Shown: in pieces, positions 1-3,000 of the stretch | Numbering within the stretch: the first letter of the stretch is position 1 | Layout: each line of letters begins with the position of its first letter | Origin: a virus | Lineage: Duplodnaviria; Heunggongvirae; Uroviricota; Caudoviricetes | Strand: one strand, 5' to 3' | IMG/VR virus record: IMGVR_UViG_2703718824_000007 | Span: 1-4,548 of that record | Length of the DNA stretch: 4,548 nucleotides | Program-made: the position numbers

Positions 1-3000
1 CCGCACACTCGCGCAGAGGAGTCTCCCTGTCGGGCTGCGGTCTCTGTTAATACGGGAATACGGCGACAATACCGCGCCATGGATAATAAGGTCGCTCAAC
101 ACACTGGCTGTAATGCAGCGGATACCATGCGGCATTTAGCGGCATTCATCGTACACTCAACGGTTAGCTCTTCATTCGTGGCATTCACCTGAAAGGTCCG
201 GGAGTGTAATTGCGTACATTTACCACTGAACGAACCTTCAACAAGAACACGACCACGCTGCAAAATACGGAACGGAATTGTTCCCTGAAAAGGTTCTACG
301 GTTACCCGTAATTTCTTCATGTATCCTCCGGATAATAAAAAGCCAGCTTAGTGCACTGAGTGCGTATATATTCCTGCGCCCCTTCCAGCTGCTTCTGCAT
401 TGTCATCAACCGTTCTCTGAGGTTGAAATAATCCCGTTCAGCGGTGTCTGCCAGTCGGGGGCCGGTTGCATTATCCACGCCGGAGGTGCCGGTGGCTTCA
501 CGCACGGTACCGGTGCAGGTGGCGTTGATCCGCAGGCGCTTACGACCAGCGGCAATATCAGCACGCAGAGTTTCATTTTCAGCTCTCGCATCGGCTAATT
601 CCCTCGAGTATTTTGCATCGAGCGCAGCAACATCACGCTGGCGCACCTGCATGTCAGTAATGGTGGCATTCGCCTGTTCCAGCTCTCTGGCTTTTTTATC
701 GCGCTGCGCTTTGTAGGTGATGGCGTTATCGCGGTAATGATTCAGCCCCAGACTAAGCGCACCACAGACCACCAGCAGAATAACAGTAAACGCGGAAAGA
801 ATTCGGTTTATGCTCACCATGCCCCCTGTCAGAAATTGCAGATTATCAGCTCGCTGACACTGCTTGTCTTACCACGTGGTACAGTATAACGATGAGCAAC
901 ATGATGAATATTCATCCCCTCAAACAATCGTCTCATTTCCTGCGAATCGTTCAGGGATATAATCATTTTGCCTTTTATTGTGCGGGCAAGTTCTGCCATG
1001 CGCTCATAATTGCAGAATGAAAAATCAATGCCGTAACCACCATCCAACCAATACGGAGGATCGCAGTAAAACAGCGTTGTCGGGCGGTCATACCGTGCGA
1101 TACAGACCTCCCAGTCAAGGTGTTCAATAGTTGCCCGCGCCAGCCGATCACGGGCTTCCTGCAATAACTGCTCTGTATTCCCGGGGATTATCTGCGGTCT
1201 GTGAGTTTTAACTCCAAATGCCCGACTGTATGCTCTTCCGCCATACGCGCACTTCTGGATAAAAAAGAAACGGACAGCCCGCTGGATATCCGTCATGTAC
1301 TCCGTGTGCTGATTTATCACCTCATTCCACATCTCACGACTGGCGAGCATCCACTGAAACTGGCGGGAAAATTCCTCCTGGTGGTACTTCACCACACGGT
1401 AGAGATTAACGATATCACTGTTTATATCGTTGATGATTTCAGCGCAGCTCGGTTTTTTCATAAAGAACAGTGCCGCACCGCCACAGAACGGTTCCACATA
1501 CAGAGTGTGCTCAGGAAATAACGGCAGAATATGTTTTGCCAGACGACGCTTCCCTCCTAACCACGGGAGAAACGGTTTTGCAGAGTTATTATTCATTTCA
1601 CCACCAGCGGATTTCCCGGATTAGAACCGCAATTGCCACAATGCGAATGGCAAATGCCGTTGCCCGAATAAATTCAGTACTCATCTGTTTAAATAAATTG
1701 TCGTCATCAGTCACTGTCACCCCACCAGCCCTGCCGAAGTCAACGCCATCCAGGCTATGGAAAGAAAAAGAGCAACCATCATTAGCGAAAATGAAACGCC
1801 GACAATCACACAGATGGTCTTCGCCAGCGTTATGAGTTTGCCTGATATCATTAGACGCCACTCCATCAATCCGTCTTTGTGATTTTTCCTTTGCCTGTAT
1901 CAGCCAGGACAAAACCAATCAGCAGATTCGCTTCGTTTATCAACGTGCGAATTTTTGATACATGCGCGGCTTTAACCAGTTTCCATTCGTTTAACCCTGT
2001 ACCAAACAGACTGGCAATGTTTTTATCCCGTTTCATGTCAGCGCATGCCTGGTTGAGTTCTTCCATCACGCTCATTTGACGAGGATTAACGACAAAACCC
2101 TTCGTCCAGTATTCATAGAGAACATCGTCGCACTCTTCCTGATACTGGATAACCTTGTCGCGGATTCCGGGTTTTACTTTGTTGGGATTGATGGTTTGTA
2201 ACCAGCCTGCAAGTTTTCGAAGTGGCAGGGACACCATATTGCGTCGTTTCCCGTCCTCAGCAACCATAACGATTTCCGTTATAGTTGACGCAAAACGCTG
2301 TCTTAACTTAGCCAACTGTGATTGCCAGGCCAGCCCCATCCCCGCAACGACAGGTTTCATGGGAACGTATGGTTCGCCGTTATGGTTAACCACATAAAGA
2401 GAATCGCCGTGAAACGGCACGGTTATCATATTCATCGGTTATTTCCTTTTAGTGATGAACCCTGCGCACAGGAATAACCAGCCCAAAGAGGGTTAACCAG
2501 ACCACTGCCGGTTATCCACCAGGGCTCATCCTGAAAGGTTCTTTGGTTTATTTACGCTTGTGCGAAGCGCAGAAATGACAAAGGCACCATTACGGTGCCT
2601 CTGCGTGAAATAATGATCCTGACTTTATTCACTTACATTTTGCCAGTTCGCAGGATTTCGTGTTATCCGTCCGCGTTGGCCAACGTCATTTTTCAGCAAA
2701 ATATTCTGCTTATCTGTCGATACCCCAGCATGCCAGCGCACTCTCCTGGTCGCGACGGGATACCTGACCGTAGCAATTATTTGAGCGAATACGGCAGTCT
2801 CTGCCACCGTCCTTAATCCACCAGCGAATCGCTTCGCAGGCACCTTTTCGATCGCCTGCATTAATTCGTTTATAAAACGTCGACGTGAAACACTTACCGG
2901 GGCCAATGTTGTAAGGACAGAATGACGCAATTCCCGCTTTCTGGGGTTCAGTCAGTGGCACTTTGATGTTTTTCTCCACCCATGCCAGCGCCTTATCACG

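Follow-up and report, generated by a model that had tools for sequence, protein, structure and literature searches.

What controls the antirepressor-like (ant-like) gene that follows the endolysin gene in a Shiga-toxin-type lambdoid phage? This question was raised by the window analyzed here, which is the whole stretch of 4,548 nucleotides (nt) at positions 1 to 4,548 of the IMG/VR virus record IMGVR_UViG_2703718824_000007, and specifically by the 274-nt gap at 2436-2709 between the two genes, which we confirmed as non-coding. An earlier note on this DNA had read the gap as a partial terminator followed by an operator-controlled promoter or, alternatively, as a small RNA (sRNA). Our analysis points instead to a cis-acting 5' leader at 2431-2583 on the minus strand, which would lock translation of the ant-like gene and belongs to a family present in temperate enterobacterial phages; we put the probability of this reading at about 0.6. 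The features that the note had described were confirmed, whereas its interpretation was only partly supported, with the terminator and the general hint of an RNA structure surviving.

On the minus strand, the 7-base-pair (bp) hairpin at 2582-2600 was perfect, as had been noted, with AGGCACC (2594-2600) and GGTGCCT (2582-2588) enclosing the loop GTAAT. The T-rich tract (TTGTCATTTCT, 2571-2581) follows, the second small hairpin (TGCGCTT-CGCAC-AAGCGTA) lies at 2553-2571, and the three motifs are GGATAACC at 2510-2517, GGTTAACC at 2491-2498, and GGTTATTCC at 2471-2479. When the gap was folded as RNA, the minus strand gave z = -4.66 against dinucleotide shuffles and the plus strand gave -2.52. The leader is approximately 146 nt long and consists of a small hairpin (P1, the second hairpin above), an A/C-rich linker, and a hairpin of approximately 95 nt. 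The same architecture was obtained from independent folds of eight members from different genera. Across the family, P1 has 4-7 bp. In the ~95-nt hairpin, a long basal stem is separated from a distal stem by an asymmetric internal loop of 5-7 nt, located on the 3' side. The basal stem is nearly continuous (18-20 bp), and in the predicted fold its CCUUU...GAUGA arm is paired with UCAUC...AAAGG, burying the Shine-Dalgarno AAGG. In the full leader, AAGG is paired with a probability of about 0.99, and the spacer and most of the AUG are predicted to be unpaired; removal of the 5' arm raised the predicted mean unpaired probability of AAGGA from 0.20 to 0.63. The ribosome-binding site that had been taken as a sign of strong expression is real and conserved (AAGGA at 2444-2448, 8 nt before the ant ATG), but it does not stand as such a sign, being predicted to be base-paired (p ~0.99). 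Of 79 sequences compared, 56 were more stable as the sense strand. Across the family, the linker is 12-23 nt long (median 19 nt) and is composed of 41% A, 31% C, 17% U, and 11% G, a composition that would suit pseudoknot loops lying in a helix groove and also ribosome standby or enhancer sites. Short variants of 127-137 nt were also observed (L283, 10982-11109; L247, 3122-3248; L253, 7799-7927; L307, 1194-1330). They lack most of the distal stem and keep P1, the internal loop, and the basal stem, which suggests that the distal part of the hairpin may be dispensable.

At least 119 stretches of viral contigs contain an exact match to the 17-mer GGTTCATCACTAAAAGG of the 3' arm, and every match lies 8-11 nt ahead of a start codon. 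The genes that begin there are mutually unrelated, indicating that the leader does not serve one protein: they encode P22_AR_N, Rha, KilA-N (alone or with P63C or ORF11CD3), KilAC/ANT, and AntA proteins and two kinds of HNH_3 endonuclease, and a second sample added BRO-like, TerB-like, and other proteins. A covariance model (R1) built from 28 sequences located the leader ahead of Ant homologues in eight enterobacterial genera. The more distant of these homologues, each preceded immediately by a full-length match, come from Salmonella, Photorhabdus, Symbiopectobacterium, Providencia, Yersinia, and Serratia symbiotica, and after a second pattern scan the matches numbered 92, from 89 sources. One subgroup comprises the region between gene 15 (Rz) and rha of P22 (BK000583, 39495-39643) together with ES18, HK544, BTP1, and the Stx2 (Shiga toxin 2) phage 2851. 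In P22, the sole leader copy precedes rha, within the late operon, and P22 ant has no leader. All contexts examined were late operons, where the leader lies between R and Rz, between Rz and terminase, or between tail genes. The curated P22 record carries no annotation at the leader and starts rha at a GTG inside the hairpin. This GTG (39575; L351, BK000583.1, leader region 39495-39650) falls in the distal leader hairpin, and an in-frame ATG at ~39645, with GAAGG upstream, occupies the start position of all other family members. The annotated P22 Rha (ORF201) is probably about 23 codons too long.

No Rfam 15 family, C4, c4-a1b1, and isrK included, matched the minus strand of the gap at E <= 10, except for noise from MEG3_2, a eukaryotic long non-coding RNA family (11.4 bits versus a gathering score of 60). 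A scan of another family member (L117) likewise returned only noise, with neither isrK nor isrJ above it, and literature searches turned up no account of a leader or pseudoknot, nor of a mapped transcription start, at ant, rha, or kilA. The leader family is widespread, strongly supported, and apparently undescribed.

The fold is supported by covariation. Among aligned homologues, the almost invariant blocks AACCTTTCAGGATGA and GGTTCATCACTAAAAGG are mutually complementary, and the segment between them varies but stays self-complementary. The 5' arm (2520-2538) carries compensatory changes in other genera, and in a Photorhabdus example the pairing is kept although the sequence is wholly different (UAUAGAAAUAGAGCCUG / CAGGCUCUAAUUUCUAUA). 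In the model-fitted alignment, 97.1% of cells were paired, as against ~40% in slid controls, and compensatory changes occurred in 23 of 33 pairs, a level reached by none of 500 shuffles. All P1 pairs showed compensatory changes, both in alignment A2 (5/5) and in a de novo alignment (4/4). The latter, made with MAFFT blind to structure and analyzed with RNAalifold, recovered P1 together with the basal-stem core, and 12 of its 15 pairs were compensatory. G-U pairs were present on the gene strand.

The P1 loop CGCAC (2560-2564) can form five Watson-Crick pairs (-6.0 kcal/mol) with GUGCG (2465-2469) in the internal loop of the long hairpin, which tops the basal stem, giving a pseudoknot whose partners covary through at least 14 sequence classes. 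These include CGCAC/GUGCG in the window, CUCAC/GUGAG in 933W, CACAC/GUGUG in the Rha copy of L006, and CCGCA/UGCGG in P22, as well as CCGCAU/AUGCGG, CCACAU/AUGUGG, UCGCAU/AUGCGA, CCGCAAU/AUUGCGG, CCGAAA/UUUCGG, CUAGCAU/AUGCUAG, UGCCC/GGGCA, CGCUC/GAGCG, and CGCCCG/CGGGCG. Loops matched their own partners over a mean of 5.28 contiguous Watson-Crick pairs, compared with 3.37 for the partners of other members, and none of 5000 permutations reached this value; the statistic is a permutation test on extracted loops, gap placement in the loops being inconsistent between alignment rows. Discrete loop/target classes of this kind would also be expected of a trans riboregulator resembling c4 or IsrK, in which P1 or a processed piece of it acts on other leaders, or an unknown RNA competes with P1, and the loop serves as a specificity code comparable to the heteroimmunity of P1/P7 immI. 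Antirepressor genes are classic targets of such RNAs (c4 of phage P1, sar of P22, and IsrK of Gifsy-1). In all 13 contigs that held two leader copies the P1 loops differed, and in 12 of them own matches exceeded cross matches, a pattern that selection against cross-talk would produce. However, a single RNA always carries both partners, at a distance of 80-90 nt, so that the covariation is accounted for by a cis pseudoknot, and two copies on one late transcript would need orthogonality anyway to avoid misfolding in cis. The Rfam C4, c4-a1b1, and isrK models gave no match, the rest of the P22 genome held no significant complement (the best had 16 nt with one mismatch, E = 0.32), and no promoter or processing site is known. 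We therefore regard action in trans as quite unlikely, and a pseudoknot formed within the leader as the simpler account.

The reading that had been proposed for the gap placed a promoter after a partial terminator, with a repressor- or Cro-type protein acting on it through three GGWTAACC operators, so that ant expression would not depend on late transcription. Parts of it agree with what was found: the hairpin and the U-rich tract are real and conserved, morons are classically equipped with their own promoter (Juhala et al. 2000, cited in PMC4104026), and GGWTAWCC is enriched, with five sites in the window versus 0.14 expected (0/200 shuffles). These sites lie at 1284-1291, 2147-2154, 2384-2391, 2491-2498, and 2510-2517; two of the coding copies are in ant, where the one at 2384 encodes V-V-N-H, and one is in the methyltransferase gene. 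The promoter scan, in contrast, found no sigma-70-like site (-35/-10, 16-18 nt spacing) on either strand of 2436-2709, its single hit in the whole window being at 842-870, and no -10 or -35 element was conserved in alignments of 28-92 homologues. With no promoter-like site in the gap and none conserved, the operator-promoter reading is not supported. Nor did the scan or inspection of conserved columns reveal a T4-style internal promoter inside the hairpin.

GGWTAACC is near-palindromic, so that the direct repeats that had been described are equally inverted repeats, and for this reason the first and third motifs can form the strands of one helix. In the minimum-free-energy fold, 2510-2517 and 2471-2479 are indeed the two strands of one helix, and 2491-2498 lies near the hairpin tip; helix formation accounts for the two leader copies of GGWTAWCC. 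Copies of the 933W type and those of Klebsiella, P22, and others lack the motifs; unrelated yet self-complementary sequence replaces them there, and the base pairing is kept. Replacement with pairing maintained is the behavior predicted for helix strands, not for protein-binding sites, and operators on DNA offer no explanation for the covariation between loop and internal loop. A promoter under operator control is, in our judgment, highly improbable.

Several other candidates were considered for the gap. The sRNA alternative was right in that RNA structure matters here, but a free-standing sRNA does not fit an element that lacks its own promoter and terminator and continues straight into a start codon. 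The known prophage sRNAs (AsxR, AgvB, Pas, EcOnc) are positioned upstream of the holin gene or after Rz instead, and no EcOnc entry lies within Sakai 1273543-1273812 (Sp5, NC_002695.2). EcOnc11, an Hfq-bound candidate sRNA (Tree et al. 2014), maps to ~5320-5368 of L230 (Sakai Sp10; NC_002695.2, 1946819-1946867), just downstream of Rz on the strand opposite the late genes and ~1.3 kb downstream of the Sp10 R-ant gap; it is not part of the leader. By-eye inspection of the leader sequences gave no match to a LexA box or to the IHF consensus, and CsrA sites were likewise rejected by eye: other genera lack the GGA of the 5' arm, which there simply changes in step with the 3' arm. A small open reading frame (ORF) starting at the ATG in CAGGATGA was also dismissed: it is 5 codons long in the window, extends to 19 codons in the 933W type and, in another frame, to 27 in Klebsiella, and is not conserved. 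Because the indels of the alignment are not multiples of three, and because the short hairpin ORF changes from 5 to 19 codons, the leader is taken to be non-coding.

Some observations weigh against a translation-locking leader. The covariation statistics rest partly on a model-fitted alignment, many members are closely related, and in the subset collected with the 17-mer the conservation of that arm exists by construction. In P22 and some other members, as read by eye, only a short outer helix beyond the internal loop pairs the GG of the Shine-Dalgarno sequence. A few members (L152, L283, and L252) have mismatched pseudoknot partners, and no experimental data on leader transcription, processing, or translation were found. 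Finally, the main hairpin, at approximately -40 to -50 kcal/mol, is so stable that translation of ant becomes hard to explain. The mismatched members (L152, 2626 on the plus strand; L283, 10982-11109; L252, 3129-3282) look like recombinants between leader types, L152 for example combining a P1 of the window type (CGCAC) with a hairpin of the 933W type (GUGAG).

The question of how the stem is opened would be answered if the long hairpin served mainly in processing or stability, for example as an RNase III site, and separated the lysis-gene mRNA from the cargo mRNA or protected the 5' end, cleavage activating or destroying the ant message as in the lambda N leader or sib. An 18-20-bp basal stem in a hairpin of ~95 nt belongs to the size class of RNase III substrates. 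A pure processing site, however, needs neither a ribosome-binding site in the stem nor a conserved pseudoknot or linker, and we consider this explanation unlikely. The compact pseudoknotted fold, with conserved unpaired or junction nucleotides (UGAGGA, GCCUUC..GGGC, and CCU-RUGCG), could alternatively be a sensor, either an aptamer resembling those of riboswitches or a translational operator to which a shared protein of host or phage binds, with the basal stem as the expression platform. The ribosome-binding site lies within the structure here, as it does in S15/rpsO, the T4 gene 32 operator, and small riboswitches, and any binder would have to be a common factor, since the cargo proteins are unrelated. 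Against this, the stem is predicted to be stable without a ligand, no Rfam riboswitch is similar, and the conserved positions are mostly in helices, making a sensory role very unlikely. A leader that locks translation by its own fold remains the preferred reading.

Upstream of P1, the terminator-like hairpin (2582-2600) has five G-C pairs among its 7 bp, a 5-nt loop, and a predicted stability of -11.7 kcal/mol, or -18.3 kcal/mol if G-U pairs lengthen it to 11 bp. The hairpin is conserved; no compensatory changes accompany its occasional mismatches. The tract that follows the stem, UUUGUCAUUUCU, is interrupted, and for this reason the hairpin was not called by the consensus terminator scan. Most other leader copies have a strong canonical terminator in the same slot (for example, GCCCCGCGATGCGGGGCTTTTTT; -14 to -17 kcal/mol), located from a few to ~25 nt before P1 and followed by canonical T6 tracts. 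The proposal of a partial terminator is supported by the shape and position of the hairpin, a putative terminator that occupies the terminator slot and is weaker than its counterparts in other copies. The scan also reported a small GC hairpin with a T-rich tail at 2405-2422 on the minus strand, within the first ant codons, which is probably a chance match in coding sequence.

The gap visibly reads as a mosaic of three modules. The first ~93 nt past the endolysin stop codon travel with the endolysin gene and not with ant: among the 1443 E. coli genomes matched, most match only at query positions 189-274, for example Sakai Sp14, in which different genes follow. For this part RNAalifold gave only a weak fold without informative covariation. 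Variation in this flank, which is present in more than 1400 E. coli genomes, is centered on an 8-codon mini-ORF (ATG...GGATAA, 2661-2684) that keeps its length and frame, varies in its codons (MTLANADG, MRFAYMDG, MTLAHAGG, MRFAHTGG), and has no obvious Shine-Dalgarno sequence. The second module, the two small hairpins (~2547-2598), occurs separately, and twice, in strain A34. There (L005, 1641-2810), a Panacea-domain gene and a ParD/ParE toxin-antitoxin pair lie between endolysin and ant, with two terminator-hairpin modules and one endolysin-proximal flank; the gap is evidently an insertion hotspot for defense or toxin-antitoxin genes. The third module, the last ~125 nt, travels with the downstream gene. 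It recurs in a Klebsiella phage, ahead of a KilA-N gene flanked by tail genes; in L006, a prophage that also holds a near-identical copy of the gap, ahead of an Rha gene; and in Salmonella, ahead of ant.

Such a mosaic, with near-identical leaders before non-homologous genes, homology that stops at the start codon, and the recombinant L152 carrying P1 of one type and the hairpin of another, is what would be seen if the element were a DNA-level boundary that promotes swapping of accessory cassettes and had no RNA function. However, compensatory changes keep the pairing across genera whose sequences have diverged, the G-U pairs are strand-specific, and covariation between loop and internal loop is inexplicable for a recombination site. 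We give this explanation almost no credence; recombination at the leader may well happen, as a consequence of its conservation and not as its cause.

These observations can be accommodated by the following scheme for the locked leader. The ant-like gene would have no promoter of its own and would be transcribed only within the Q-antiterminated late transcript that reads through the weak terminator at 2582-2600. On this transcript, the leader would keep ant translation off or very low, as the 30S subunit could not reach the ribosome-binding site, and the pseudoknot, possibly with the linker lying along the stem, would clamp the closed state. Release, if there is any, might come from opening or cutting of the stem through RNase III-type processing, a ribosome standing by on the linker, or a protein or RNA factor. 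As a generic module, the leader would be placed by phages before many potentially harmful accessory genes in their late operons, and its function is most likely the translational silencing of accessory genes inside these operons. A citing paper (PMC4936722) describes P22 rha as a late-operon gene that is harmful to phage growth without IHF and is under IHF control, which fits a need for tight control.

A more far-reaching and rather doubtful extension is that the family forms a new class of programmable RNA lock, in which a variable 5-7-nt pseudoknot code clamps the hairpin that hides the ribosome-binding site and a specific trans signal or regulated RNase III releases it, so that phages time or condition their cargo and the codes provide orthogonality. 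If this were true, the signal would be a phage or host RNA or protein recognizing P1 or the internal loop, or else regulated RNase III cleavage; temperate enterobacterial phages such as P22 and the Shiga-toxin phages would time or condition antirepressors, KilA/Rha proteins, and HNH nucleases from their late operons; and differences in the code would make co-resident prophages orthogonal to one another or give them a specificity resembling immunity. Antirepressor-type, KilA, Rha, and HNH genes populate the late operons of many temperate phages, including P22 and the Shiga-toxin phages of enterohemorrhagic E. coli, and the shared, covarying, pseudoknotted leader suggests one common post-transcriptional control that was overlooked even in P22. 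If Ant from this locus inactivates the repressors of co-resident prophages, leader control would bear on cross-induction and toxin release. For RNA biology, the leader is a clean new motif with a designable loop-loop code, and for annotation, its model shows where the genes of a large accessory class truly start.

The positions of the leader elements and of the neighboring genes are collected in Table 1.

Table 1. Leader elements, gap modules, and genes located in the window.
Feature	Position	Strand	Remarks
Full R1 covariance-model match	2431..2583	-	97.1 bits, E = 1e-20, full model
P1, small GC hairpin	2553..2571	-	in every independent fold
P1 loop CGCAC, 5' partner of pseudoknot	2560-2564	-	
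Single-stranded linker, A/C-rich and G-poor	2539..2552	-	
Basal stem, 5' strand CCUUUCAGGAUGAGCCCUG, anti-Shine-Dalgarno arm	2520..2538	-	conserved core AACCTTTCAGGATGA
Distal long hairpin with the three GGWTAACC-like motifs	2470..2519	-	helices conserved, sequence not
GUGCG in 3' asymmetric internal loop, 3' partner of pseudoknot	2465..2469	-	
Basal stem, 3' strand CAGGGUUCAUCACUAAAAGG, including Shine-Dalgarno AAGG	2445..2464	-	AAGG pairing p ~0.99
Shine-Dalgarno AAGGA (2444-2448), spacer, and ant ATG (2433-2435)	2433..2448	-	
Interrupted U-rich tract UUGUCAUUUCU	2571..2581	-	final base is first base of P1
Terminator-like GC-rich hairpin	2582..2600	-	7 perfect bp, loop GUAAU
Endolysin-proximal flank	2617..2709	-	first ~93 nt after R stop codon
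Non-coding gap, 274 nt	2436-2709	-	endolysin to ant-like gene
Class II holin	4056-3841	-	
185-aa ORF	3837-3280	-	between holin and endolysin; without Pfam match
Endolysin (R)	2710-3243	-	Phage_lysozyme
ant-like cargo gene, 189-aa antirepressor-like protein	1866-2435	-	P22_AR_N + ORF11CD3
50-aa ORF	between ant-like gene and D12 methyltransferase	-	
D12 adenine methyltransferase	1596-829	-	
Rz/Rz1	820-317	-	

The window is the lysis cassette of this phage, and every gene in it is on the minus strand. Many Stx1 and Stx2 prophages carry the gap at 96-99% identity; in 933W, where the gene order is S-R-gap-ant-Rz, the identity is 81%. In the window, the 50-aa ORF and the D12 methyltransferase gene (829-1869) separate ant from Rz. 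In 933W and in strain 88-3493, whose gap is 99.3% identical, Rz comes directly after ant and the small ORF, and the methyltransferase gene is therefore an additional insertion. It has no leader copy of its own, R1 having a single match in the window. The slot of the 185-aa ORF (3280-3837) is taken by different ORFs in other Stx prophages, with one of 345 nt in Sakai Sp10 and Sp14 and none in 933W.

Several known systems resemble the leader in part. In the immI region of phages P1 and P7, the c4 antisense RNA controls icd-ant; a hairpin loop pairs with a short complementary stretch of its own transcript, just ahead of an antirepressor-type gene, and thereby blocks that gene's ribosome-binding site, and the loop and target sequences vary between related phages, giving distinct specificities. 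The present leader, however, does not match the C4 model, its ribosome-binding site is closed by a long local hairpin and not by loop pairing, and its single contact of 5-7 bp is explained most simply as a cis pseudoknot, with no sign of processing or trans action. The logic of P22 sar is also close to the silencing proposed here: an antirepressor gene in a late operon is kept untranslated from read-through transcripts by RNA pairing at the ribosome-binding site, so that Ant synthesis from late transcripts is blocked by sar RNA. Yet sar, which is annotated in BK000583, is a separate antisense transcript with its own promoter inside ant, and no such promoter was found here; the gap has no plus-strand promoter, and the plus-strand version of its hairpin lacks a U tract. 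The isrK-orf45-anrP locus of Gifsy-1 reportedly places a prophage antirepressor-like gene behind a translationally inactive, structured leader that needs activation at the RNA level (Hershko-Shalev et al. 2016). However, the Rfam isrK and isrJ models gave no match above noise, and both the architecture and the range of cargo are different.

Stable local hairpins also hide the Shine-Dalgarno sequence on read-through transcripts in the T4 e and I-TevI early transcripts and in the lambda N leader, and, as in the present family, their cargo includes HNH or homing-endonuclease genes. In those systems, relief comes from a mapped RNase III cut or from a second promoter within the hairpin, whereas no internal promoter was detectable here, and the present leader adds a conserved pseudoknot and is shared by many unrelated genes. 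In rpsO/S15, the alpha operon with S4, and T4 gene 32, a pseudoknot that lies 5' of the ribosome-binding site or includes it governs initiation. These systems are autoregulatory and are bound by the protein they encode; the proteins encoded behind the present leader are unrelated, so autoregulation is excluded for the family. Sequestration of a ribosome-binding site in cis is known, while the fold, the variable loop code, and the sharing of one leader by many unrelated accessory genes are new.

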